A DNA stretch of 63,256 nt, filler included, from Candidatus Fermentibacterota bacterium (GTDB lineage Bacteria; JAFGKV01): the NCBI GenBank assembly GCA_016928395.1. It is 8 parts of 8 records of this genome, joined end to end, with 100 filler letters (N's around TTAATTAATTAA, not from the genome) between each part and the next. Parts side by side here need not be neighbours in the genome. Positions count along the whole stretch, not along the records: positions 37,446 to 43,357 come from JAFGKV010000035.1; 7 more parts are not named here. One strand, written 5' to 3'. The notes below the pieces were generated by a model, which had not been told where the DNA came from, did not search any database, and saw only the letters and a list, made by a program, of their open reading frames with translations. Shown here piece by piece: positions 19,246-47,446 of this stretch. How positions within the stretch are numbered: the first letter of the stretch is position 1; each line of letters begins with the position of its first letter. The translations under genes and the position numbers were made by a program.

Positions 19246-22200
19246 CTACTCGGGCCTGGCGCGTTCCCGCGCCAGCTCCTTCTCACGAAGCTCCGGGTAG
19301 AGGTAGGGATCTCGCTCGCCGGCCGCGCAGTAGTCGAGGCGACTGGCCTCAGAGCCTCTGCGTTTGGCGACCACACGGTAGTCGAATGCCACACTGGAGC
19401 GTCCGTTGTGGAGCTCAACGACGTCAAACCCCGTCAGGCCCTTCTCCACGTAGACCCCCTCGCACTGCCCTCCGAGCTCGATGAACACCTTCATGGGGTT
19501 GGCCGCGTCGATGGTGACCGTCTCCAAGAAGAGCGGGTCCAGCTCGACATGGGTGCGACCGTTGATCAGTCGCTCCTCCCCAAAGTCCTCGACCCAGTCT
19601 CCCGCAGTTGCGTGCACACCCAGGCCGATAGGACCCTTGGTGGCGCGGACTACCGCCGTCATCTTTCCGGAGCCCCCCCAGCCGCCGGAGTAGTAGACGC
19701 CGAAGCCGCCAGGCGAATCCGTCCGGCCGTACACGCCGTAGTTGGTGCCTGAGGTTGCCGACGCGGTACCGTTGACGCCCCTTCCCGCAGTGGATTCATC
19801 CCACCCAATGACACCGTGAGTGTAACCCGTGTCGGACATGGAATACCCCTCGATTGCCGTACCGTCGGGGGATAAGCAGTAGCCGTAGATCCCTCGCGTG
19901 AAGCCCGTGATCGCATAGGCACAACCACGAACACCAGTTCCTCCACTCGCTGAGCTGCGGCCGTCCACGCCGACACTGCTCCCCGACGTGGCGGACGCTT
20001 CTGCGAACACCGCGACGCCGGAAGGTGCGCGGCTCACGCTGTAGACCCCATATGTCGACCCGGTCGTGGCCGAGGCCCACGCATAGAGGGCCCGGCCTTC
20101 CGTGGAAGCGGTCTCGGCATGGACTCCGTAGGCTGTTCCTGCCCCCGCACTGTTGTTTCCGTGGACGCCTACGCCATCCGAAGAGGAACTGACACCTTCA
20201 ACGCCGGTAGTGCTGCCGACCATGTGTGTTGCTTCGCCGTACACCGCCGTGCCCGCCGAAGAGCTGGTTTGGCCGTATACCCCGTAGCTGTCGCCGGCAG
20301 ATGAGTACGCGAAGCCGTACACGCCGTAGCCATTGGGGGAGTCACTCCTGCCGTAGACGCCCCTGGTGGCGCCGGAGCTTGCCTTGCACCATCCCACCAC
20401 TCCCCGGCCGGCAGATGATTCGCTTACGCCGTAGACGCCCTCGGTTTGCCCCGTGGTCGCGGCCGCATAGCCATACACTCCGGACGCGGTAGTCGAGGCA
20501 GTCTCCCCATGCACGCCATTGCCGGTGCCGGAATTGTTGCCTGTAATGATCGGACTTGCTGAAGCTCCCGCCAAGGAGAGAGGCACCGCGACGCCGATGT
20601 TCACGTCTCCCGTCGTACCCCCACCAGTTAAGCCGGTACCGACAATCACGCCGGTGATGTCGCCGAAGGTCGGCCCGATGAGATCCCCGTCCAGCGTAAG
20701 ATCGCCGGTGATCCGCGCATTGCCGGCGAAGTAGCCGGCATAGCCGGAGGTTGACGAGATCTCACCGTAGACTCCGTAGGTCGTTCCGGTCGTGGCGGTG
20801 GCCCAGCCGTACACACCTCGCCCCTCGGTCGATGCGCTCTCGCCGTAGATGCCGTAGGTGACGCCCGTCGTTGCCGTTGCCGCTCCGGATACGCCTTGGC
20901 CCTGGGCAGAGGCCGAGGCGCCGAGCACGCCGTACGTCTCGCCGGACGCTGCGGTGTTGTAGCCGCGCACCCCGCTTCCGGCCCCGCTGTTGGTGCCGGA
21001 GACCACGGGATTGGTGGATGATCCACTCAGTGCCAGTGGAACCGCGACGTTGAGCGTTACGTCTCCGGAGGTACCCCCACCTGTGAGCCCTGCGCCAGCC
21101 GTCACCCCGGTGATGTCGCCGAGGCTTGGCCCGATGAGGGAACCATCAAGGGTCAGATCTCCAGTGACGCGGGTGTTGCCGGCGAAGTAGCCGGCATACC
21201 CTGACGGGGACGCGGCGATGCCGTAGACCCCATATGTAGTGCCCGAAGACGCCGCCGCATATCCGAAGACACCCCGCCCATTCGTCGCGTCACTTCGCCC
21301 TTGAACTCCATAGGTGGTGCCCGTGGCGGCTGTTGCGATCCCGAATACGCCTCTGCCAGAGGTGGACCCGCTGTGGCCGAAGACCCCATACGTATCACCA
21401 GTGGTGCTCGATGCAGAACCTTGAACGCCGACACCTGCTGCAGACGCGCTCAGGAATATGCCGCCGTAGGTGGCTCCCGCAGTGGCAGTGGCCCAGCCGT
21501 GAACGCCCCGGCCTGCCGTGGATGCACTCTCTCCGTAGATGCCGTAGGTAACGCCCGCCGTGGCGAGAGCCGCACCGCTTACGCCCTGGCCCTCGGTGGA
21601 GGAGGAGCTTCCCATCACGCCGTAGGTCTCGCCCGACGCGGCGGTGTTGTAGCCGCGCATCCCACTTCCGGCCCCGCTGTTGGTGCCGGAGATGATGGGG
21701 TCAGCGCCTGATCCGCTCAACGCCAGCGGAGTCGCCACGCTCAGCGTGACGTCACCGGCGGCACCCCCGCCCGAAAGCCCTGTCCCGGCCGTTACTCCGG
21801 TTATGTCGCCGAAGGTCGGCCCGATGAGATCGCCGTCCAGAGTCAGATCGCCAGTGACGCGGGTGTTGCCGGCGAAGTAACCGGCATAGCCTGAGGTTGA
21901 CGTGGCCTCGCCGTAGACCCCGAAAGTGGTCCCCACCGTGGCAGTGGCCCAGCCGTACACTCCGCGCCCATCCGCTGATGCACTTTCCCCATAGAGGCCG
22001 TAGGTGACTCCTGTCGTGGCCGTTGCCGCACCGCTTACGCCCTGCCCCTCGTTGGATGCCGCAATCCCCATCGCGCCGTAGGCCTCGCCCGACGCAGCAG
22101 TGTTCTGGGCCTTCAGGGCCGCACTCGCAGCGACTGCGCCACTGATCTCAGTTCCCGGCACCAGGCCGCTGGCCATGTAGGCATAGCCCACGCTTCCAAG

Positions 22201-30672: not shown

Positions 30673-32475
30673 ATGAAAGGCCGGGGCAACGCGACGAGGG
30701 GCGGGGCAAAAGCCTGCTGGCTCGTCGCGGCCCTCATCCTGTTCCTCCTTCCTCGCCTGCCCGGTCTCGCCCTCACCCTCACCGTCAGCAACACGGTGGC
30801 GGGAAAGACCCCCCAGTACATCGGCGGCAACGAGGGCGCCGCTTTCCGGGCAAGCGACCTCCAGGACAGCGGGATGAACCTGTACCGGGTTTGGGCAACC
30901 ATGGGCGAACTCGAGTACTACGATGACGACTGGGTATCTGCCGGCTACCCGGGCTGGCCTACCTATCCCACCTCGACCTACTACGGCACGCCGACCATCG
31001 CCCAGATCAAGGCGGATCCCGGTGTCATCCCCTGGAGCGTCTGGAGCAATGCGTTCGCCCGTGCCCGCTGGACCGGCGCTGTTTCCTTCAAGGATGTCTT
31101 GGCAGGATGCCGTGCGGCGGGTGTTGAGCCTCTGCTGGTACTCCGGCCCAGAGGGCCCGGCGAGGAATGGATCACGTGGATCCCGGGCGCGCCCGACGGC
31201 GAGGCGTTCTGGGCGGAATGGTGGGAGTACTGCTTCGCCGTGGCCCACTGGTGCAATGTCAGCAACAACTGGGGCATCACGCACTTCGAGGTACATAATG
31301 AGCCCGACCTCTCCGCGCAGGGCTGGACCGGGACAGCGTCGCAGTACGTCCAACTCGTAACCTCCGCTCACGATGCCCTGGCCTTCGCCAACAGCGCGGC
31401 CGGCCTCCCCGTGTACCTCCACGCCCCGCAGGTGTCCGACTACGGGTCGTCCTACCTCTCGTACTCGCTCGACCATGCGGACACGAACATCGACGTCGTG
31501 GACTACCACGTCTACGACAAGTACCACTCGCTGACCGCCAGCATCGCATCCGTGAAGGGGACCGTGCTGAGCCACAACCCCGACGGCGTCGCGGAACCCG
31601 TCTGGATATCGGAGTGGGGCGACCTGGACGGGCAGTACGACACGGTGGCGAGGGGTCTGCTGACGGCGCAGCATCTCTGCCAGATGGCCCAGGGAGGGAT
31701 CACCGGCGCGGCCATCTTCATGTGCTACGACTGGGGCGCGGCGCAGAGCGGGCTGATCAGCACGAACTTCGTGCCGTATGACTCATACTACGCGTTCCGC
31801 CTGGTCCTGCAGGGCCTCGGCGGCGGGCGGGACATCCTGGAGGCCGGCTCAAGCGATCCCTCGAAGCAGGTCATCGTCACGCGGAACGCCACCGGGGTCT
31901 GGGTCCTGGCCGTGGCCGTCGGCACCAACGTGGATGTCGACCTCTCCCAGGCGGGTTACCACTGGGCCACGGCCGAGACGCGGGAGTACTCCGCGACGCA
32001 CAAGGACGTCCCGACGGGAACCCTGCGGCTGACCAACGGCGTGCTGTCGCTTGACTGTTCTACCCAGCAGGTGATCGGTGCGTTCCTTTCGGCCGACCAG
32101 CTCGATACGGATGACGACGGCATGCACGACAGCTGGGAGCTTCTGTTCTTCCCGTCGCTGACCAACGCCGACTCCGCCTCGGACTACGACCAGGATGAGT
32201 TCCCGGACCTGCACGAATTCCTGGCGGGCACGTCCCCCACGGACAGTTCGTCCCTGCTCAGGATCAGCGGCGTGGCCCATCCCGATCCCGCTGCGTTCAT
32301 CATCTGCTGGCCTTCCGCCAGCAGCCGGGTCTACGGCGTCCAGGGCTGTGCGGATCTCGCCGGGGGCTTTGCCGACCTGACCAACGGCCTTTCAGCGACT
32401 TGGCCGGAGAATTCCTTCACCGACGCCGTTGATGCTCTGCCCGCGCGCTTCTACCGCATTCAGCTCGAACCCTAG
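30673..32475 (+). CDS. Secreted clan GH-A glycoside hydrolase (GH5/GH39-like) with a Verrucomicrobia-type C-terminal domain
   Basis: Signal peptide; HFEVHNEPD (acid/base) and VWISEWG (nucleophile); tail DTDDDGMHDSWE...EFLAGTSPTD...RFYRIQL. Confidence 0.8.
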   Translation: MKGRGNATRGGAKACWLVAALILFLLPRLPGLALTLTVSNTVAGKTPQYIGGNEGAAFRASDLQDSGMNLYRVWATMGELEYYDDDWVSAGYPGWPTYPTSTYYGTPTIAQIKADPGVIPWSVWSNAFARARWTGAVSFKDVLAGCRAAGVEPLLVLRPRGPGEEWITWIPGAPDGEAFWAEWWEYCFAVAHWCNVSNNWGITHFEVHNEPDLSAQGWTGTASQYVQLVTSAHDALAFANSAAGLPVYLHAPQVSDYGSSYLSYSLDHADTNIDVVDYHVYDKYHSLTASIASVKGTVLSHNPDGVAEPVWISEWGDLDGQYDTVARGLLTAQHLCQMAQGGITGAAIFMCYDWGAAQSGLISTNFVPYDSYYAFRLVLQGLGGGRDILEAGSSDPSKQVIVTRNATGVWVLAVAVGTNVDVDLSQAGYHWATAETREYSATHKDVPTGTLRLTNGVLSLDCSTQQVIGAFLSADQLDTDDDGMHDSWELLFFPSLTNADSASDYDQDEFPDLHEFLAGTSPTDSSSLLRISGVAHPDPAAFIICWPSASSRVYGVQGCADLAGGFADLTNGLSATWPENSFTDAVDALPARFYRIQLEP

Positions 32476-32798: not shown

Positions 32799-33182
32799 CT
32801 AGAACCGGCGGGAGAAGTCACGCTTGCCGTGACCACCGCCGTGACCACCGCCATGGCCGCCGCCGTATCCGCCGCGGCCGCCACCGCCGCCGTGCCCGCC
32901 ACCACCGTACCCGCCGCCGCCACCGCCACGCTCCTCGCGGGGCCGGGCCTCGTTGACCGTCAGCGCGCGGCCGTCAACGTCCTTGCCGTTGAGCTCGGCG
33001 ATCGCCTTCTTGGCCTCCTCCTGGGACGCCATCTCGACAAAGGCGAACCCGCGGGACTTGCTCGTGAACCGATCCAGGATCAGTTCGCAGCTGGACACAT
33101 TGCCACACTGCGCGAACAGGGCCTTGAGGTCGTCCTCGGTCGTCTGATATGACAGGTTGCCGACGTATAACTTGCTACCCAT
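32799..33182 (-). CDS. RRM RNA-binding protein with a Gly-rich tail
   Basis: RNP2 KLYVGNL, RNP1 RGFAFVEM, LTVNEARPRE. Confidence 0.95.
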   Translation of the reverse strand: MGSKLYVGNLSYQTTEDDLKALFAQCGNVSSCELILDRFTSKSRGFAFVEMASQEEAKKAIAELNGKDVDGRALTVNEARPREERGGGGGGYGGGGHGGGGGRGGYGGGHGGGHGGGHGKRDFSRRF

Positions 33183-37345: not shown

Positions 37346-37502
37346 NNNNNNNNNNNNNNNNNNNNNNNNNNNNNNNNNNNNNNNNNNNNTTAATTAATTA
37401 ANNNNNNNNNNNNNNNNNNNNNNNNNNNNNNNNNNNNNNNNNNNNCGACGTCGGCGCTCCCGCGCCCGTCTCCGGCGCACCGCTCGCTGGTGGACAGCGC
37501 AC

Positions 37503-39863
37503 CTATCTCCTCACGAGGCGGAAGCCCAGGCCATTGCCGCGGCTGCCGGGGCCGTACCCGTAGCGACTCGCCGACCGGCAGCCCCTGGCGATGCCGTACC
37601 AGCCGCCGCCGCGGTAGACCCGGAACGAGCCTGATGATGCCCCCTTTGGATCGGTCTGCGAGCCTGACGAATAGGAGCCATACCAATCCCAGCACCACTC
37701 CCATACGTTCCCATGCGTGTCATACAACCCAAATGCGTTGGCCTGCTTGCCCCCGACATCATGCGTCTGGCTGCTGGAATTGCCGGAGTACCACCCCGCT
37801 CGCCCTAACGCGGCCTCCCCGCTCCCGGTATTGTACTCCCCCGTCGTCCCCGCTCGGCACGCATACTCCCACTCCGCCTCCGTCGGCAACCGATACCCGT
37901 TGGCGCCCCAGTTGCACGTAACGCTGCTTCCCGATCCCGAGTAGCACCGCGTGAGCCCCTCCCGATCCGACAGCTTTTTGCAGAACTCCACCGCGTCATT
38001 CCACGACACCTGCTCCACCGGCCGCTTCGCCCCCTTGAAGCGCGACGGGTTCGTCCCCATCACCGCCTGATACTGCTCCTGCGTCACCTCATACTTCCCC
38101 ATCGAGAATGACGAGACCGTCACGCTGTGCACCGGCTTCTCGTCCGAATCCCCGTCGTTCGACCCCATCTGGAACGTCCCACCTTGAATCCGCACCATCT
38201 CCACCAACTGCCGCGCCGCTCGTTCCCGGGCCTCCTTCTCCAACCGAACTCGCTCCGCCTCCGCCTCGCGTGCCGCTCGTTCCCTCGCTGCCGCTGCTTC
38301 ATGTTCTCGCCGCGTCTCCTCCGCCTGCCGCACGCACTCCGCAAGGCGTACGCTGTAGTCTGCGTATCCCCCCACCTTTCTCAGCGCCCCCGCATGCTCC
38401 TCCGCCTTGGCGCATTCCCCTGCCGCAAGCCTGCCCTCGATCATGCCCTCGTATGCCGCCTGCATCTGTCGGATCACATCCGCACGCACCGCATTCCCCG
38501 GATCCAACCTCCCCAGCTCCTCGCACGTCTCCCACGAATTGTCTCCGATGGGGCTCGTGTACTTCTTCCCCGCCAGTTGGCTGCGCGCCTTCCCCTCCAG
38601 CTCCATGATCCGCTGCCGCCTGGTATCAGTGGCAGGAGGAGTCGGCGTCGGCGTAACCGGTCCGGACGTCGTTGCGGGCGGCTGGATCGTGTTTCTCGCC
38701 ACGGGTGCCGGTGCCTGCGACTTCCGCGTCTCCCGCAGCAGCAAACCCCCCAGTATTGCCACCAATACCACCAGCGCGCTCCCCAAAATCACCAACTGCC
38801 GATCCACTCCCCTCCGAGGGCCGGTGGGAGCCGGGCGAGGCTTCGGCTCCCGTTCAGCCGCTCGCGGCGGAGCAGCCTTCACCTTGTACGTTCGGTCAGA
38901 CTCAGGATGGGGCGAGACTCGCGGGGGCTCCGGGCGCGAGGCCTGAGGAGGCCGAGTCGAGGGAGGTGGCTGCCGCGGCGGCGCCTCGTATGGTAGAGCC
39001 TGCACTGCGCCCCCGAACGCTGCTTGACCCGATGGCACATACGCCGGTAACCGGCTCGGATCCTCCAACCCCCGGATCAACTCCTCGGCGCTCCGTACTC
39101 GCCGCCCCGGATCCTTCACCATGCACGCACCGATCCACCGGATCGCCTCAGGCGGCATTCCCGTAAACGAGGGGTCGCTCTGTGTTTGGTTGTACATCAC
39201 CGACATCGGATCGCCCACGAACGGCGTGTGCCCCGCCAGCAGCTCGTACGCCATGCACCCGATGGCATACAGATCCGTGTGAAACCCGATCTCGCTCCCC
39301 CCTCGAATTGCCTCCGGCGCCATGTACGCCGGCGTGCCGCTGATCGTCGCGTCCTGTGAGATCCGGCTCATCGAACTCATGATGCTCTTCGAGATCCCGA
39401 AGTCCGCCACCACCGGTGTCCCATCCTCCCGAAACAGGATGTTCCCCGGCTTGATGTCCCGATGCACGATCCCGGCTTCGTGTACCGCCTGCAGCCCCTT
39501 CAGGATCGGCAACATCAATGCCTTGACTTGCTCCCAGCTCAGCGTCCCGTACCTACGCCGGTACGCCGCCAGATCTCCCCCCTTGGCCCATTCCATCGTC
39601 ACGAACCGCCCACCCTCGCCATCATCCCACAGATCGTACACCCGCAGGATATTCCGACCCGATACCTTGCGCGCCCGCTTCACCTCTCGCGCAAACTGGC
39701 TCACCGCCTCAGGATCTCCCGCCATGGCATCCGGTAGGAACTTCAGCGCCACCTCATCCAACTCCCGATCCTGCGCCCCGAACACGATCCCCATGCCTCC
39801 GGCCCCAAGCTTCTGCCGAAGCTCGAATCGCCGCACAACTATCTGCCCAGGTTGATAGCTCAT
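37503..39863 (-). CDS. Membrane Ser/Thr protein kinase with a C-terminal FGE-sulfatase (CLec-fold) domain; candidate DGR target
   Basis: GAGGMG, VALK, HRDIKPGN, DFG, GTPAYMAPE; TM LVILGSALVVLVAILGGLLL; FGE motifs FQMGS, RLPTEAEWEYACR, GNVWEW, RGGGW...GFRL. Confidence 0.93.
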   Translation of the reverse strand: MSYQPGQIVVRRFELRQKLGAGGMGIVFGAQDRELDEVALKFLPDAMAGDPEAVSQFAREVKRARKVSGRNILRVYDLWDDGEGGRFVTMEWAKGGDLAAYRRRYGTLSWEQVKALMLPILKGLQAVHEAGIVHRDIKPGNILFREDGTPVVADFGISKSIMSSMSRISQDATISGTPAYMAPEAIRGGSEIGFHTDLYAIGCMAYELLAGHTPFVGDPMSVMYNQTQSDPSFTGMPPEAIRWIGACMVKDPGRRVRSAEELIRGLEDPSRLPAYVPSGQAAFGGAVQALPYEAPPRQPPPSTRPPQASRPEPPRVSPHPESDRTYKVKAAPPRAAEREPKPRPAPTGPRRGVDRQLVILGSALVVLVAILGGLLLRETRKSQAPAPVARNTIQPPATTSGPVTPTPTPPATDTRRQRIMELEGKARSQLAGKKYTSPIGDNSWETCEELGRLDPGNAVRADVIRQMQAAYEGMIEGRLAAGECAKAEEHAGALRKVGGYADYSVRLAECVRQAEETRREHEAAAARERAAREAEAERVRLEKEARERAARQLVEMVRIQGGTFQMGSNDGDSDEKPVHSVTVSSFSMGKYEVTQEQYQAVMGTNPSRFKGAKRPVEQVSWNDAVEFCKKLSDREGLTRCYSGSGSSVTCNWGANGYRLPTEAEWEYACRAGTTGEYNTGSGEAALGRAGWYSGNSSSQTHDVGGKQANAFGLYDTHGNVWEWCWDWYGSYSSGSQTDPKGASSGSFRVYRGGGWYGIARGCRSASRYGYGPGSRGNGLGFRLVRR

Positions 39864-39962
39864 GATCGACTACTCAACAAAAAGCTCATGAGTATTGGCG
39901 CACTGCCTTCCATCTCGAAGCTCCTTCGATCCAAACGCTCCACGACCCCTCCCCGCGTTCCC

Positions 39963-39991
39963 GTTCGATGCTCGACGTTCAATGTTCAATG
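39963..39991 (+). repeat. Heptamer tandem repeats (GTTCRAY)n; further tracts at 41025-41065, 41151-41196 and 43331-43357
   Basis: GTTCGAT/GTTCGAC/GTTCAAT units, all in the same orientation. Confidence 0.8.
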
Positions 39992-40038
39992 TAGTACCTG
40001 CGCTGTTGAGCGCGGAATGACGCCGACGCGCTTCGTCA

Positions 40039-40266
40039 TCAGAGGTTCTCTATAAACTCCTCGGGTGAGACCTCGGCCTGCCTGAGAATGCCACGGAGAG
40101 TCCCAATCGCCAGCTCTCGGTGGAGAGGAACCGCGCACCCCACGTCGCCTTCAGGCCTCTTCCGCCGGAGTATCACGTGACTTCCTCGTTGCCTGGCTCT
40201 TACGAAGCCCAATCTCTCCAATGCACGGATCGCTTCACGCCCCGAAACGCGTCGGAGCTCAGGCAT
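40039..40266 (-). CDS. hicA: HicA toxin
   Basis: LERLGFVRARQRGSHVIL...VPLHRELAIGTLRGILRQA. Confidence 0.92.
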   Translation of the reverse strand: MPELRRVSGREAIRALERLGFVRARQRGSHVILRRKRPEGDVGCAVPLHRELAIGTLRGILRQAEVSPEEFIENL

Positions 40267-40471
40267 TGACCGCCGCTTCGAAGACCGTCAGAATGGGCTT
40301 TGAGGTCTCTGGCATGGGGAACTCCTCAAGGTAGAGCTCGGTCGCCTCTCTAAGATTGACCACCGCCTCGTCGGCAGTGCTCCCTTGGCTCACCGTGCCC
40401 ACTTCGGGGCACTCCGCAACGTACAAATCATCTTCCCGATGCACGACCGCGCTGAAGATCCTGGTCGCCAT
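40259..40471 (-). CDS. hicB: HicB antitoxin (short form)
   Basis: MATRIFSAVVHREDDLYVAECPEVGTVSQGSTADEAVVNLREATELYLE; has its own RBS GGAGGTGA. Confidence 0.9.
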   Translation of the reverse strand: MATRIFSAVVHREDDLYVAECPEVGTVSQGSTADEAVVNLREATELYLEEFPMPETSKPILTVFEAAVNA

Positions 40472-40559
40472 TTCTTCACCTCCGTGACCGGTGGAACACC
40501 TTCTCCCCCCATCTTTTGGCGCGTGCTGCCATCTTGCCCTTCTCCAAGGGCTGCCGACT

Positions 40560-40855
40560 CCCTCCGTAGAAGCGCCGATTCCTCCTCTCGCGCGCGCTCT
40601 CGCGCGCGCAACGGGATGCGGGATGATGTCAACAGGAATCCGCCGCGACAGTCCCCGCACTCGGCGACGGTACTTCAGTGCCAGCGGCAAATACCCCTCC
40701 GGGCTGTCCTGAAACACCGCGACATCCATGTCGTGTGGATGCTCGCTCTTCAGGAATGACCCGAAGACGATGATCTTCTTGATCTCCTTCTCCACCCGAA
40801 GACACCGCACCAGCTCACGCTTCAGGGCCTGCTTCTCATCGCTCGACAGCGTCAC
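40560..40855 (-). pseudogene. Minimal nucleotidyltransferase (MNT), frameshifted by a 7-bp duplication and read in frame into hicB
   Basis: IIVFGSFL...HDMDVAVF...IPVDIIP; tandem CGGGATG x2 (40612-40625) and TCTCGCGCGCGC x2 (40586-40609). Confidence 0.7.
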
Positions 40856-41087
40856 GGCGTCCTCCTCTGGCCGGCTTCACCGCAGTAGTCGAGCGACCAG
40901 ATCCGCTCAACACATCACCCGAATGGCAGGCGTAGAGGATAGGGCATCCGCGACCCTCTGTCACCCCTCACCCCTTTCACTCATCCGTGCGCCTATCCCA
41001 TCTGTCCAGCATTCGATCTCCATCGTTCGGTGTTCGATGTTCGACGTTCGAGGTTCAATGTTCACCTCTCCCTCTCCCTTCGCAAAT

Positions 41088-41110
41088 GTAGGAGCGGTGT
41101 CAACCGCGAA
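41088..41110. repeat. Single GTAG-family REP
   Basis: GTAGGAGCGGTGTCAACCGCGAA, identical to array unit 5 at 43869. Confidence 0.75.
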
Positions 41111-41215
41111 CCCCCCTTTCTCCAGAAGCGAAGTCGAGGGGAATCCCGTCCTTCGACGTTCGATGTTCAACGTTCGACGTTCAATGTTGAGCGTTCCCTT
41201 CAAGCGCCCTCGCGC

Positions 41216-43207
41216 CTACCCCGCACGATACTCCAACTCCGTCTCGCCGATCTTGATCCGATCGCCGGGCACGACCGGCGCCGACTTCACCGGCTTCCCA
41301 TTCACCAACGTACCATTGGTGCTGCCAAGGTCAATGATCTTCGCGCCTCCCGCCCTTCGTTCGATCTGGGCATGGCGCGCCGACGTCTTGCCGTCATCTA
41401 TCACGATGTCGTTGCCCGGCGATCGCCCCAGCGTCACCACGGGCTTCGACAGATTCCACGCCCCGCCTCGCGGCCCAATCCCGACCAGCCTCGCCCAGAC
41501 AACTTCCGGAGGCGACGGCTGTACCTGAACCGCGGCCACCACTGGTGCGTGCGTGCCCTGCCTCCTTCGTGCGGCTACCACGGCGATGGCTCCAAGCGAC
41601 AGAATGCCGACCCACAGAGCGCCCAGCACGTACCACAGCGGGTTCGTGCCTTTCCGCACCAGAACCACGTCGGGCGGTTGAGGGCCAGGCCCGGTCGACA
41701 TCCCGACTTCTCCCTCCCAGTAGTGAACCTCGGTCGTCGCCTTGGTCAACGCCTGCACAAGCTGGACGACGTTCTCGGCCCGGTGAAACGTTCCCTGGCC
41801 AGCGTGCGCGATGGCTTCGAGCTGGCGCTGCTCCTTGGGCTCAACATCGAACGCGATGACCACGAACCGAATGGGCGTCGACTGGTCGGCCGCATACGCC
41901 GTCGCGGCCAGGTGGTTCAGAATCATGCTCAACCCCCCAGTGCCTTGCAGATTCAACTCGCGAGCCGCCTGCACCGGATCGCCATTGCACGTCTCCATGC
42001 CATCCGAGATGAGGATCAGGCTGAGGTTGGTCGCCGATGGTCGGTCGCGTAGCAGTTGCGCCCCGCGCCTGATGGCCAGTTCGATGGGCGTGCCTCCACT
42101 TGGCCGCAGGGGCGCAATGGCAGTTGCGATGGCATTCGCGTCGCTGGTGAAGTCTTTAACCAGCTCCGTCTCGCAGCTCCCACCAAAGGTCAATAGCCCG
42201 AACTCATTGCCTGGCAGAGCGACGAGCTGCTGAAGGGCGGTGTTGAGCGCCTCCTTGGCCGCATCGATCTTTCGCACCGCCGATCCCGGCGCAGGGTCAT
42301 CCATGCTCCCGGAAACATCCAGCAGGAAGAGTATGGTGGCATTGCTCATGGGATCGACGGGCACGGGCCCTCCGAGCTGGAATCTGGCTGCCTCCGCTAT
42401 CCTGGTTCGGTTCAGCTCTTCGACGCGAGCGATGAAGCTCACGTAGGGCTGGTATGCCATGAGGCCCACGCGCCTGGCTTCCAGAATGTCGCCCACATCC
42501 TTGATGAAGAACGCCGTCTGCGTGAGCGGGAGCGCCCGATCGATGCCCAGGTAGCTCTGATAGTGTACGTCGAACTGCTGGAGCAGCTCCTCGGTCACCT
42601 TCCTCGCCAGCAGCCCATCCACTGAGTAGTCCTGCGTCCGCGACTCGTTGTAGAGAGCTCGTGCGATTGCAAGTTTGAACAATCCCCACCGCCGGTCCAA
42701 GAACTCCAGCGCATCATCTCTCGAAAGCGGCGTACCCCCGAGGTACCTCCTCGCGATGGCGTAGGCGATCGCATAGTCCGCCAAGCCCTCTTTGATGACC
42801 GTCCGACTCAATCCTTGGCAAATCGTCCTGGGGGTTTTCACCGATGACTCGATCACGTGGAGGATGAAGTCCTCTCCGATCGAAGCTCCAAGCTTGTAGA
42901 ATCCTCCCGTAACCATGTCAACTGCCAGCTTCGGGCTTTCCAGCAGCACATACGCCCCGCCATACATAGCGACAGTGGCCCCTATCGTGTAGACACTGAC
43001 CGTCAAGCCGTAGCCAATGGGGGTCCAGAATCCCTGAGTTTTGGCGATCACCTCTTGCGCAAGCTGAACGGGGTCGCCAAACGACATCGTCCATCCCTGA
43101 TCCAACGAGATCGGCGGAAGCTGGCTCTCATCCGGCGGCTGTGCAAACACAGCCGAAACCGCCAGTGTCAGCACAAGCCCTGCCGCAGTCCACGACCTGC
43201 TTCTCAT
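41216..43207 (-). CDS. Signal peptide - VWA - TM - FHA membrane protein
   Basis: MIDAS LLDVSGSM...GGTP...LISDG; TM LWYVLGALWVGILSLGAIAVVAA; FHA LGRS...TSARHA...DLGSTNGT. Confidence 0.9.
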   Translation of the reverse strand: MRSRSWTAAGLVLTLAVSAVFAQPPDESQLPPISLDQGWTMSFGDPVQLAQEVIAKTQGFWTPIGYGLTVSVYTIGATVAMYGGAYVLLESPKLAVDMVTGGFYKLGASIGEDFILHVIESSVKTPRTICQGLSRTVIKEGLADYAIAYAIARRYLGGTPLSRDDALEFLDRRWGLFKLAIARALYNESRTQDYSVDGLLARKVTEELLQQFDVHYQSYLGIDRALPLTQTAFFIKDVGDILEARRVGLMAYQPYVSFIARVEELNRTRIAEAARFQLGGPVPVDPMSNATILFLLDVSGSMDDPAPGSAVRKIDAAKEALNTALQQLVALPGNEFGLLTFGGSCETELVKDFTSDANAIATAIAPLRPSGGTPIELAIRRGAQLLRDRPSATNLSLILISDGMETCNGDPVQAARELNLQGTGGLSMILNHLAATAYAADQSTPIRFVVIAFDVEPKEQRQLEAIAHAGQGTFHRAENVVQLVQALTKATTEVHYWEGEVGMSTGPGPQPPDVVLVRKGTNPLWYVLGALWVGILSLGAIAVVAARRRQGTHAPVVAAVQVQPSPPEVVWARLVGIGPRGGAWNLSKPVVTLGRSPGNDIVIDDGKTSARHAQIERRAGGAKIIDLGSTNGTLVNGKPVKSAPVVPGDRIKIGETELEYRAG

Positions 43208-43457
43208 CTCACTCCCCCTTTGCGGGAATCACCCGCCGCTACAGGTTGACACGCCATGGTTCGCTGCCCACCCGCCCGTCTCCCTCCCTTTCGCAAAGAG
43301 AGGCCGGCTGGGATTCTGCTCGGTTGCTCCGTTCGATGTTGGACGTTCGACGTTCGANNNNNNNNNNNNNNNNNNNNNNNNNNNNNNNNNNNNNNNNNNN
43401 NTTAATTAATTAANNNNNNNNNNNNNNNNNNNNNNNNNNNNNNNNNNNNNNNNNNNN

Positions 43458-44446: not shown

Positions 44447-47446
44447 ATGAACCCGTCGGGCAGAATGAACGTCGCGCAGTTCATCGCGAAGTGGTCGAAG
44501 TCCGAGCTTTCAGAGCGAGCTGCGGCTCAGCAGCATTTTCTGGATCTCTGCGAGCTGCTGGAGCACCCCAAACCTGCCGATGTGGACCCTACGGGTGATA
44601 CCTTCACCTTTGAGCGCGGTGTTACGAAGACAGTCGGCGGTGATGGATGGGCCGACGTGTGGAAGAAGGGCTTCTTCGGCTGGGAGTACAAAGGCAAGCA
44701 CAAGGATCTCGACGCTGCCTACCAGCAACTCCTCCAATACCGAGAGGCGCTGGAGAATCCTCCCCTGCTGGTTGTGTGTGACATGGAGCGCTTCGTTGTC
44801 CGCACGAACTTCACGAACACCCCGGCGACTCATCACGAGGTGTGGCTCAGGGACCTTGGTGCACCGCGAAGTCTGGAGATTCTCCGTGCCGTCTTCTTCG
44901 ATCCGGAGAAGCTGAAGCCCGGCAGGACCAGTCAGGCCATCACTGAGGAAGCCGCTCGGCACCTCGCCGAGATTGCGCAGCGCCTCCGCGACCGGGGCAT
45001 CGATCCGACGGAAGTCGCCAGATTCCTCGACAGGCTTGTGTTCTGCCTCTTTGCCGAAGACATCGAGCTGCTTCCCGGGAACGTCTTTTCCCGGACCGTA
45101 GAGAAGATGAGGCGGGAACCGGAGCGATTGCAGAAACACCTCGATGATCTCTTTCTCTCGATGGCAAAAGGTGGCGAGTTCCTGCTCGAGGACATCCCGT
45201 GTTTCAACGGCAATCTCTTCGACGGAACAAAGGCTCTGCTTCTCACGGAACCTGAGATCGCGAGCATCCAAAGGGCTGCGCAGCTCGACTGGAGCGCAGT
45301 GGAGCCTGCGATCTTCGGGACGCTCTTCGAACGGGGGCTTGATCCCTCCAAACGGTCGCAGATCGGTGCTCACTATACGAGTCGAGAGGATATTGAGACG
45401 CTTGTTGAGCCTGTCGTGATGTGGCCCTTGCGCCGCGAGTGGGAAGAGACTCGGCGGATGGCCGAGAACCTCCTCACGACCGGCCTCAAGAACCCGGACC
45501 GGAAGAGCAGCCGAGCAGGAGGGCCAGAGAAGCGCCGAGAGGGCTCCTTCACACCCACGAAAAAGGTCGTAGACGAGGCCGACACGCTCGTTCAGAGGTT
45601 CCTTCACCGCCTTCGGAGTGTGAAGATACTGGATCCGGCATGCGGTTCGGCGAACTTCCTCTACGTGAGCCTTCAGAAACTGAAGGACCTCGAGAAGGAG
45701 GTCATCACGTGGGCGACCGATCATGGTCTGGGCGGCCTGCTACCGTTCGTAGGTCCGTGGCAGCTCTTTGGCATCGAGGTCAACCCCTACGCCTATGAGC
45801 TAGCCCAGATGGCCATCTGGATCGGCTACCTGCAGTGGTCGCGCGCCAACGGGTTCGGCTACCCAATGGACCCGATCCTCCGCCCCATGGTGAGCAACTT
45901 CCAATGCAAGGATGCCATCATCGATCTGTCTGACTCGGAGAACCCGAGGGAGCCCGAGTGGCCAACGGTTGACTTCATCGTCGGCAATCCACCGTTTCTC
46001 GGCGACAAGATCATGCGAGGAGGTCTGGGTGACGACTACGTGGACCGGCTCCGATCTCTATACGGTGGCCGCATCCCCGGCCAATCCGATCTGTGCTGCT
46101 ACTGGTTCGAGAAGGCCCGCGCCCACATCACCTCCGGCAAGTGCAAGCGCGCCGGGCTACTCGCCACCCAAGGAATACGCGGCGGCGCGAACCGCGAAGT
46201 CCTGAAACGCATCAAGGACGGCGGCGGCATCTTCTGGGCGGAGAGCGACCGCCCTTGGATTCTGGACGGCGCCAACGTTCACGTCAGCATGGTCGGCTTT
46301 GATGATGGAGAAGAGAGAAACGCCATTCTGGACGGTCGACAGGTCTCCGTGATCAACGCCAACCTGACGGCTGCTGCTGACATAGGCAGGGCGTCCTCCC
46401 TTGAAGACAATCTGGGCATCGGTTTCATTGGGGTCGCGCAGAAGGCTCCCTTCGACGTAACTCACTTCAGTGCACTGGGGATGTTGGACAGACCTAATCC
46501 CCACGGCCGTCCCAACTCGGACGTGCTGGTTCCGATACGGAACGCGAAGGACCTGACACAACGGGTGCGAGAGGTCTGGAACATCGACTTCGGGTTGGAC
46601 ATGCCACAGCGTAGTGCCTCTCTCTATGAAGCGCCGTTCTCTCATGTGACGGCGGTGGTTCGACCGCTCCGTGTAGACCATAGGGAAGCCCGGCAGGCGA
46701 AGTACTGGTGGCTCTTCGCTCGCCCCTGTCCCGACATGCGGAAGGCTCTCGCCGGTCTTGGGAGATTCGCGGCCACGCCGAGGGTTTCCAAGCACAGGGT
46801 CGTGGTCTGGCTGCCGCCTGAGGTCCTGTGCGATAGCGCCCTCGTCGTCTTCGCCCGATCCGACGACCTGTTCTTCGGCATCATGCACTCGCGATTCCAC
46901 GAAGTCTGGGCTCTGCGCATGGGGACCCGTCTGGAGACGAGGCCTCGCTATACCCCATCCACCTGCTTTGAGACCTTCCCATTTCCGACGGGCGTCATCC
47001 CGGAGCCCCAAACCCTAGCTCCCGATTCCCCCCTCACCGAGATAGCCTCCTCTGCCAGAGAGCTGAACGATCTCCGCGAGAACTGGCTGAATCCCCCGGA
47101 GTGGACACGGACCGAAATCCTCGAATTCCCCGGCACGGTCGGCGGGCCGTGGGACCGCTACATTGATCCGGCGACGGTTGAGGAACGCGGCACATTCAAG
47201 ATCGGCACCGTCCGCTATCCCCGCCTTGTACCACGCGACGCGGATTGTGCCGCCCGCCTGAAGCAGCGGACCCTCACGAAACTCTACAACGAACGCCCGG
47301 CATGGCTTGCGAATTGCCACCAACGCCTTGACGCTGCCGTCGCCGCCGCCTACGGCTGGAGTCCCGACATCTCAGACGACGAGATCCTCGAACGCCTCCT
47401 GGAACTCAACCTTGAGCGATCGGCAGCGCTGCCCAAACATCCCTGA
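44447..47446 (+). CDS. MmeI-like (Type IIL/IIG) fused restriction endonuclease / N6-adenine methyltransferase
   Basis: N-terminal nuclease (GWADVWKKGFFGWEYK), GAHYTS, motif I LDPACGSANFL, motif IV IVGNPPF, target-recognition domain, RYTPSTCFETFPFP, LTKLYNERP tail. Confidence 0.88.
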   Translation: MNPSGRMNVAQFIAKWSKSELSERAAAQQHFLDLCELLEHPKPADVDPTGDTFTFERGVTKTVGGDGWADVWKKGFFGWEYKGKHKDLDAAYQQLLQYREALENPPLLVVCDMERFVVRTNFTNTPATHHEVWLRDLGAPRSLEILRAVFFDPEKLKPGRTSQAITEEAARHLAEIAQRLRDRGIDPTEVARFLDRLVFCLFAEDIELLPGNVFSRTVEKMRREPERLQKHLDDLFLSMAKGGEFLLEDIPCFNGNLFDGTKALLLTEPEIASIQRAAQLDWSAVEPAIFGTLFERGLDPSKRSQIGAHYTSREDIETLVEPVVMWPLRREWEETRRMAENLLTTGLKNPDRKSSRAGGPEKRREGSFTPTKKVVDEADTLVQRFLHRLRSVKILDPACGSANFLYVSLQKLKDLEKEVITWATDHGLGGLLPFVGPWQLFGIEVNPYAYELAQMAIWIGYLQWSRANGFGYPMDPILRPMVSNFQCKDAIIDLSDSENPREPEWPTVDFIVGNPPFLGDKIMRGGLGDDYVDRLRSLYGGRIPGQSDLCCYWFEKARAHITSGKCKRAGLLATQGIRGGANREVLKRIKDGGGIFWAESDRPWILDGANVHVSMVGFDDGEERNAILDGRQVSVINANLTAAADIGRASSLEDNLGIGFIGVAQKAPFDVTHFSALGMLDRPNPHGRPNSDVLVPIRNAKDLTQRVREVWNIDFGLDMPQRSASLYEAPFSHVTAVVRPLRVDHREARQAKYWWLFARPCPDMRKALAGLGRFAATPRVSKHRVVVWLPPEVLCDSALVVFARSDDLFFGIMHSRFHEVWALRMGTRLETRPRYTPSTCFETFPFPTGVIPEPQTLAPDSPLTEIASSARELNDLRENWLNPPEWTRTEILEFPGTVGGPWDRYIDPATVEERGTFKIGTVRYPRLVPRDADCAARLKQRTLTKLYNERPAWLANCHQRLDAAVAAAYGWSPDISDDEILERLLELNLERSAALPKHP

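Follow-up and report, generated by a model that had tools for sequence, protein, structure and literature searches.

The 3′ end of a gene for a membrane-spanning serine/threonine kinase, found in the 63,256-base stretch of DNA analysed here (the window, which consists of eight contigs joined through N-TTAATTAATTAA-N linkers), is very likely a variable region (VR) written by a diversity-generating retroelement (DGR). The region comprises the last 122 or so nucleotides of the gene (Table 1) and falls at the 3′ end of the open reading frame (ORF), within a C-type-lectin (CLec) fold of the FGE type. In the mechanism proposed, a reverse transcriptase (RT) working with Avd would copy the RNA of a template repeat (TR) while misreading its adenines, and the resulting cDNA would then replace the VR by retrohoming, directed to its site by the GC-rich VR 3′ end (GGGCTTCCGCCTCGTGAG) and by a downstream GC hairpin with a GRNA tetraloop. 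A preliminary description of the locus had arrived at the same reading, and all of its testable parts are supported by the present analysis. The gene is located at the low-coordinate end of a contig of 5,912 bases (37446-43357), which ends 57 nt past the stop codon of the gene. The analysis shows that a DGR-type VR is recognisable on such a fragment even without its template, here by three signs, namely a change-point in third-base usage, conservation of synonymous sites with foreign VR/TR sets, and divergence confined to codons that carry adenine in a template.

Composition and kinship of the variable region

The codons quoted in the preliminary description occupy 37631 down to 37506 of the minus strand, with the stop codon TAG at 37505-37503, and the composition of these last 42 codons differs sharply from that of the other 744 codons of the gene. 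Glycine is encoded by GGC in 11 of 12 cases versus 13 of 76 elsewhere (Fisher p 7.9e-7), C is the third base of 28/42 versus 154/744 codons, codons ending in C or T number 30/42 versus 243/744 (p 9.2e-7), and adenine accounts for 13 of 126 versus 435 of 2232 bases. An unsupervised scan for a change-point in third-base usage, blind to the hypothesis, placed the best break before codon 745, that is at window position 37631, which is the boundary that had been given beforehand; the log-likelihood ratio was 19.5, a value attained by 0 of 500 shuffles of the ectodomain part of the gene. The abrupt change at 37631 therefore stands, but it should not be read as a departure of the VR from the style of its host, since it is the gene body that departs. 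In 19 other large ORFs of the window, 666 of 1448 glycine codons are GGC and 5594 of 13418 third positions are C, whereas in the body of the kinase gene 421 of 744 third positions (57%) are G and the coding-strand GC skew is 0.3-0.4. The gene body, and not the VR, is the codon-usage outlier of the window, and the VR lies near the window's usual style.

The body of the kinase gene (37632-39863, minus strand) also uses GGG for 47 of its 76 glycine codons, and the 19 other ORFs have G at 28-44% of third positions. This odd composition could stem from a horizontal origin, from a contig foreign to the bin, or from strand bias.

A degenerate pattern built from the VR scaffold was scanned over metagenome, genome and viral-contig collections. 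It matched four metagenome and three genome stretches, which included clear VR/TR sets, and gave 0 matches in the viral contigs; a blastn search of phage records also returned no match. The window VR is 71-77% identical in DNA to VRs with adenine-specific templates, and two sources of such sets, G001 and G003 (the latter titled as a Rhodobacteraceae metagenome-assembled genome), allow the comparison to be made base by base. The G003 set is on contig 3, where two divergent target genes flank an AAC-rich copy, and this template differs from its two VRs at 17/31 and 15/32 adenines, with only 1/97 and 1/98 of the other bases differing. On contig 1 of G001, three VRs precede the template, with 15/23, 15/25, and 15/24 adenines and 13/105, 6/105, and 5/103 other bases changed. 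Both G001 and G003 carry RT genes of DGR size, two of which, in G001, adjoin FGE-domain ORFs.

Against the G003 and G001 templates, to which it aligns gap-free or with one 3-base gap, the window VR has changes at 20/29 and 16/22 of the adenine sites, compared with 15/95 and 14/92 of the others (p about 1e-7). Over three foreign templates, including that of plasmid pPAES01 described below, the window VR differs at 68-73% of the adenines and 15-23% of the other bases. Cross-controls in which true VRs were set against the template of the other lineage (n=5) gave 13/26 to 21/30 for adenine sites and 17/89 to 25/103 for the others, while the G001 and G003 templates, when compared with one another, are changed at 4/27 adenines and 27/105 other bases, their adenines thus being kept. 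On these comparisons, the window sequence behaves as the mutated VR of a related but different DGR, and not as a template, and its decay does not exceed that of VRs with a template still in place. The anatomy that the preliminary description assigned to the VR is found codon for codon in real DGR VR/TR sets. Its pattern of NNC and NNT codons derivable by changing adenines holds as well, and the GGG codon is no longer an exception to it, since the G003 template has AGG at that site.

The kinship extends to synonymous sites. Codon alignments with four target genes of G001 and G003 gave a third-position identity of 34-43% in the 169-175 CLec codons upstream of the VR and of 76-83% inside it; among conserved residues, codons are identical in 21/61 to 37/78 cases upstream (34-47%) and in 12/14 to 20/25 cases within the VR (75-87%). 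The G-ending scaffold codons CGG TCG GCG are identical in matches titled as proteobacterial, Rhodobacteraceae, and Methanoperedens, which points to conservation of sequence and not to a common taste for C-ending codons. As a negative control, 30 FGE-domain loci were fetched from G001-G003. The nine that belong to VR sets of the CRSAxR scaffold type reach 80-108 bits against the window VR, a tenth reaches 59.9 bits, and the other 20 score 17-49 bits, even though many of these 20 still encode a recognisable RGGSW...GFR tail.

Only one match was obtained among 72,556 plasmids, namely the 3′ end of an FGE-family gene on plasmid pPAES01 of Prosthecochloris aestuarii DSM 271 (NC_011061.1; 71.5% over 144 nt, E 3e-11), and the locus there runs in the order FGE-family target, HRDC, 'diversity-generating retroelement protein Avd', 'RNA-directed DNA polymerase', TR, and second FGE-family target. 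The two VRs of pPAES01 depart from their TR at 8/23 and 11/17 of its adenines, with 0/58 and 1/56 of the other bases changed, and the window VR differs from that template at 13/19 adenines and 13/57 other bases. The plasmid and the window share scaffold codons, the GC-rich 3′ end of the VR (18 of 19 bases identical), and an FGE-type CLec target with the VR at its extreme C-terminus; the homology between VR and TR in pPAES01 stops at GTGAG, and the 3′ limit of the window VR was placed by that analogy. The FGE-family targets of the plasmid differ in being short (about 300 and 263 codons, going by the annotation) and in having no annotated kinase domain; the plasmid's TR and RT are adjacent, whereas neither is in view in the window, and its VRs are followed by a TTTTAC-rich motif instead of the GRNA hairpin of the window.

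At the protein level, the nearest relative with the same architecture among the matches listed is P0122, a protein of 764 residues with kinase and FGE domains. Upstream of the VR, 145 of 191 residues of its CLec domain are identical to those of the window protein. Across the 42 codons of the VR, the two proteins differ at 14 of 17 template-adenine codons, defined as those whose first or second base is A in the G003 template, and at 0 of the 25 others (p 1.3e-8; protein level). Mismatches scattered among homologues had been named in the preliminary description as an outcome that would count against it, and those seen in P0122 are confined to template-adenine codons. The RGGGW variant that it had remarked upon, in place of the usual RGGSW, is also present in P0122, and glycine occupies that site in 27 of 103 family tails. 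In these 103 C-terminal tails, taken from the matches listed in the third protein search, the same columns exceed 3 bits of entropy; they hold Y, S, N, D, G, and F, with K, E, Q, M, and W at 0-6%, which is the repertoire to be expected of NNC codons. No same-species variant of the VR was found among the best 120 shorter proteins, where the top identity was 67%.

Positions 1 and 2 of the 17 presumed variable codons of the window gene comprise 15 G, 10 A, 8 T, and 1 C, and the codons include seven GGC (Gly) and four TAC (Tyr), so that C is nearly absent and glycine is much more frequent than in the family on average. Possible causes are selection for Gly, Tyr, and Ser at a surface, a bias in misincorporation, or a template unlike the ones used for comparison.

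In the 57-nt tail between the stop codon and the end of the contig, the GAGA-loop hairpin reported in the preliminary description is present (hairpin a in Table 1), and an overlapping hairpin b is predicted by the minimum-energy fold. They lie 31 and 39 nt from GTGAG and are mutually exclusive. Hairpins with a GRNA loop and at least five perfect pairs number seven in the window, counting both strands, with about 0.003 expected per 57 nt of one strand, and hairpin b is the only one of them in the tail. The accessible text on DGR target hairpins describes GC stems of 7-10 bp, capped by GRNA loops of 4 nt as read on the sense strand and set 4-34 bp away from the VR (PMC3240598). The arrangement in the window resembles that at mtd of Bordetella phage BPP-1 as described there, with a GC-rich VR end followed by a GC hairpin with a 4-nt GRNA sense-strand loop, and its spacing is within or just past the range reported for elements of that type; the window differs in having two exclusive hairpins with stems of 6 or 9 pairs and bulges, compared with 7-10 perfect pairs in BPP-1. 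The GC-rich VR end and the GRNA hairpins, although imperfect in their stems, are thus moderately supported as predicted target-recognition elements. There is no run of T after hairpin b and a terminator scan found no site in the tail, and a search of the 5.9-kb contig against Rfam found nothing.

A conserved T-rich motif of the TTTTACCC or TTTTACTC type, often in two copies, occurs about 10-40 nt downstream of proteobacterial, Rhodobacteraceae, and Prosthecochloris VRs (loci L002, L003, L005, L007, L028, L029, and L071); it is absent from the templates of those sets and from the window, and it may be another kind of target-recognition element. One of these loci, L029 (contig 3 of G003, 7119 bases), stops about 100 bases or less past a VR at both of its ends, and the window contig likewise stops 57 nt past its VR, such that assemblies may tend to break just past VRs.

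Architecture of the receptor kinase and its relatives

The preliminary description had read the gene as a kinase with intact catalytic motifs, one transmembrane helix, and a CLec domain, and this order is borne out by Pfam, motifs, and hydropathy. All five Hanks motifs, GAGGMG, VALK, HRDIKPGN, DFG, and APE, are present at residues 20, 38, 134, 154, and 182, respectively. Only one other stretch exceeds the Kyte-Doolittle cut-off of 1.2 (at 1.23), and it lies inside the kinase domain, while the position of the transmembrane helix is kept in seven aligned homologues. Kinases need ATP, so the kinase domain should be cytoplasmic, and with a single transmembrane helix the C-terminal half, including the CLec domain, should lie outside the membrane.

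Table 1. Features of the kinase locus, with coordinates counted along the whole window
Feature	Position	Strand	Basis
Receptor-type Ser/Thr kinase gene, 786 aa	37503..39863	-	ORF; Pfam Pkinase E 6.2e-47, FGE-sulfatase E 2.1e-53
Hanks-type kinase domain, residues 13-260	39084..39827	-	Pfam (PF00069) and motifs
Single transmembrane helix, residues 357-376	38736..38795	-	Only strongly hydrophobic 19-residue stretch, Kyte-Doolittle mean up to 2.84
Helical/coiled-coil ectodomain segment between Pro/Thr-rich linker and CLec	38205..38621	-	No Pfam family; secondary structure predicted from sequence
FGE-sulfatase/C-type-lectin-fold domain, TvpA-like, residues 554-785 of 786	37509..38204	-	Pfam; solved-structure match
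Probable DGR-type variable region, about 122 nt	37510..37631	-	5′ limit, codon change-point; 3′ limit, analogy with GTGAG end of homology in three real DGRs
Hairpin a: 6 pairs, one-base bulge, GAGA loop (GCGCCG-GAGA-CGGGCGC), 31 nt past presumed VR end	37462..37478	-	Sequence; motif scan
Hairpin b, overlapping a: 9 pairs, two-base bulge, GGGA loop, up to contig end	37447..37470	-	Minimum-energy fold
Membrane protein, 663 aa, VWA and C-terminal FHA domains, same strand, upstream	41216..43207	-	Pfam FHA E 4.5e-18, VWA_2 E 3e-17

Among solved structures, the best relative of the C-terminal 242 residues is variable protein 1 of Treponema denticola (2y3c_A, E 4.2e-49), and the best true FGE is thirty orders of magnitude worse (E 2.2e-19). 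In the alignment to an FGE chain, C-x-x-x-R-C of the enzyme stands against C-(3-residue gap)-R-S in the window protein, and only the first cysteine is retained. The cysteines of the C...RC motif of FGE are, we assume, its catalytic pair, and the C-terminal domain of the window protein would on this sequence evidence lack the active-site pair of a catalytic FGE. The alignment to the Treponema protein, TvpA (PDB 2Y3C), covers residues 17-240 of the 242 queried and includes the VR tail; TvpA, which we take to be a lipoprotein and a DGR target, differs in that its 294-residue chain is spanned nearly end to end by the CLec alignment, leaving no kinase and no transmembrane helix. In the window protein, the rewritten codons would form the ligand-binding face of a TvpA-like CLec domain outside the membrane, and the binding state of that domain would be passed to the intact cytoplasmic Hanks-type kinase, which may in turn signal to the FHA-domain membrane protein encoded upstream.

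DGR targets that combine a kinase with a lectin domain have already been published, and the window gene adds a member to an expected kind of gene. Ser/Thr-kinase-CLec variable proteins are described in the accessible text on cyanobacterial DGRs, including targets remote from the RT, and most cyanobacterial variable proteins are there predicted to be cytosolic (PMC7517822); a kinase-domain DGR target is listed for Thiohalocapsa PB-PSB1 in the available part of another report (bioRxiv 10.1101/2023.09.22.558884). As far as these sources describe them, such targets have an N-terminal Hanks-type kinase and a C-terminal CLec domain bearing the VR, as does the window protein, which is unlike the mostly cytosolic cyanobacterial proteins in carrying a transmembrane helix between the two, so that its variable face should look outwards. 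A global survey, in the part accessible, gives most cellular DGR targets as membrane-anchored (bioRxiv 10.1101/2020.04.01.020958). The lineage is also different from those of the cyanobacterial and Thiohalocapsa targets, the nearest named homologue among the matches listed being from Candidatus Fermentibacteria. No publication was found in the literature searched that combines 'Fermentibacteria' with 'diversity-generating retroelement', and supplementary tables may list such loci.

For residues 1-560, the best matches listed are a Candidatus Fermentibacteria protein named as a kinase (57% identity, without a CLec domain) and P0122. The kinase, the transmembrane helix, and the first ectodomain segment are shared with P0121, P0123, P0124, P0126, and P0127 (44-57% identity), and the first part of the helical ectodomain segment is common to these five kinase-only homologues and P0122. 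Each of the five kinase-only proteins terminates in two CxxC pairs, whereas P0122 and the window protein have in that place a coiled-coil-like stretch followed by the CLec domain. The sensor end of this kinase family thus appears as either CxxC pairs or a coiled coil with a CLec domain, the one swapped for the other.

Explanations for the origin of the variable region

Several observations weigh against a DGR origin of the region or against a DGR that is still at work. No template repeat was found in the 63-kb window, where the best non-self blastn match of the VR scored 30 bits, and no RT domain was found by Pfam in 19 of the 79 window ORFs of at least 150 aa; a tblastn search of the window with four RT ORFs, taken from the RT loci of two other genomes, gave a best E of 0.22. 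These searches agree with the preliminary description, which had placed neither element in the window. A cognate template, recognisable by differences at other bases near zero, was also not found in the metagenome, genome, viral, plasmid, and phage collections; the window's own VR is missing from them too, which means that the organism is not represented there and that the missing template says nothing. The one sediment-metagenome run that covers 0.97 of the sampled words of the window is available as contigs only (about 7x depth), a form in which rare variants are dropped. The tail downstream of the VR folds with ordinary energy (z -1.44, with 19 of 200 shuffles folding as well), and hairpin a has 6 pairs and a bulge where 7-10 pairs are described. 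The codon shift is in part a property of the unusual gene body. Since rapid divergence at the surface of a binding domain does not require a DGR, the protein pattern in P0122 alone is no proof.

Two sites were considered as templates in the window (32325-32368 and 32856-32921) and rejected, being 44-66 nt long at 64-70% identity (30 bits). A 250-nt contig that covers 37516-37590, from the two sequencing runs compared with the window, was likewise rejected, its 14 differences not being adenine-specific. Most pieces recovered from the contigs of these two runs at 80% likeness are conserved FGE motifs of other organisms.

If a DGR did write the region, there is a slight presumption that its cognate TR and RT still exist in the genome. 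The fuller proposal is that a DGR is still at work on this locus in a Fermentibacteria-like bacterium and keeps rewriting the outward lectin tip of a membrane-spanning Hanks kinase; it is put forward tentatively, and in it the contrast between a G-skewed gene body and a template-like VR would be a record of ongoing overwriting. Its chief competitor accepts DGR authorship and disputes present activity only: the VR would have been written in the past, its template and RT would since have been lost or have decayed, and it would now encode a fixed binding site. The window holds neither TR nor RT, and orphans appear to be common, since VR/TR homology suggests diversification in only 121 of 219 cyanobacterial CLec orthologues in the accessible part of the source (PMC7517822). 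Against this account, the region shows no drift in its third bases toward the strongly G-ending style of the gene (C in 28/42 against 154/744). Its non-adenine sites are changed by 15-16% relative to the foreign templates, against 19-24% for VRs that still have a template, and the frame is open, with the 3′ recognition sequence and hairpins intact. These points do not date the last rewriting, and they leave a frozen VR as an unlikely but serious account of the locus.

An ordinary FGE/CLec sensor without any DGR history, in which a conserved scaffold and fast-evolving ligand contacts were joined by a codon shift due to chance or local composition, is considerably less probable. FGE-sulfatase domains are very common, with at least 7966 and at least 8000 matches at E<=0.001 in two protein searches, and GC-rich genomes favour NNC codons, as do the other genes of the window. 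Such a sensor would hardly be expected to conserve synonymous sites with the VRs of other bacterial groups inside the VR only, to have G-ending scaffold codons (CGG TCG GCG) identical to those of foreign templates, or to stand apart in DNA similarity from 20 of 30 other FGE-domain loci, and the change-point coincides with the start of TR-VR homology in the G003 alignment. Least probable of all, and barely credible, is a 3′ cassette acquired from another CLec gene by recombination or horizontal transfer, or joined to this one by chimeric assembly, without retrohoming in the lineage. The composition changes abruptly 179 nt from the contig end and the gene body is atypical for the window, as such a join might produce; against it, a separate contig of the sediment run (368 nt, 0 differences) covers 37503-37870 and so crosses the boundary, although its independence is incomplete because the run may be the sample from which the window was assembled. 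The same junction and an identical scaffold are present in P0122, which makes the join older than the split of the two proteins.

Were the retroelement present and active, this gene would equip a little-studied, uncultured lineage with a receptor kinase whose extracellular sensor is evolvable, and through it the cell could evolve new extracellular ligand specificities for a phospho-signalling pathway. It would also add to the case for cellular DGRs that tune signalling, beyond those that act on phage tail fibres or adhesins.

Neighbouring genes and further hairpins

The protein encoded upstream on the same strand (41216-43207) has a signal-like N-terminus and a second hydrophobic stretch in addition to its VWA and FHA domains. 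FHA domains bind phospho-threonine, and this protein may therefore be a phospho-dependent partner of the kinase. The interval between the two genes (40039-40855, minus strand) contains a gene for a HicA toxin (E 1.8e-17), a weak HicB-like antitoxin, and a weak nucleotidyltransferase-like ORF, below the Pfam cut-off, that runs into the antitoxin.

Two other GRNA hairpins of the window (19256-19275 and 40590-40609) were set aside as recognition elements, since they lack a preceding VR-like tract. That at 40590-40609, across which the nucleotidyltransferase-like ORF runs into the HicB-like antitoxin, is perfectly palindromic, its 8-bp GC stem closing a GAGA loop, and that at 19256-19275 (minus strand) has a perfect 8-bp GC stem with a GGAA loop and overlaps the final codons of a 1262-aa ORF without a Pfam family. 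The next contig carries a 999-aa MmeI-like restriction-modification protein (44447-47446, plus strand).

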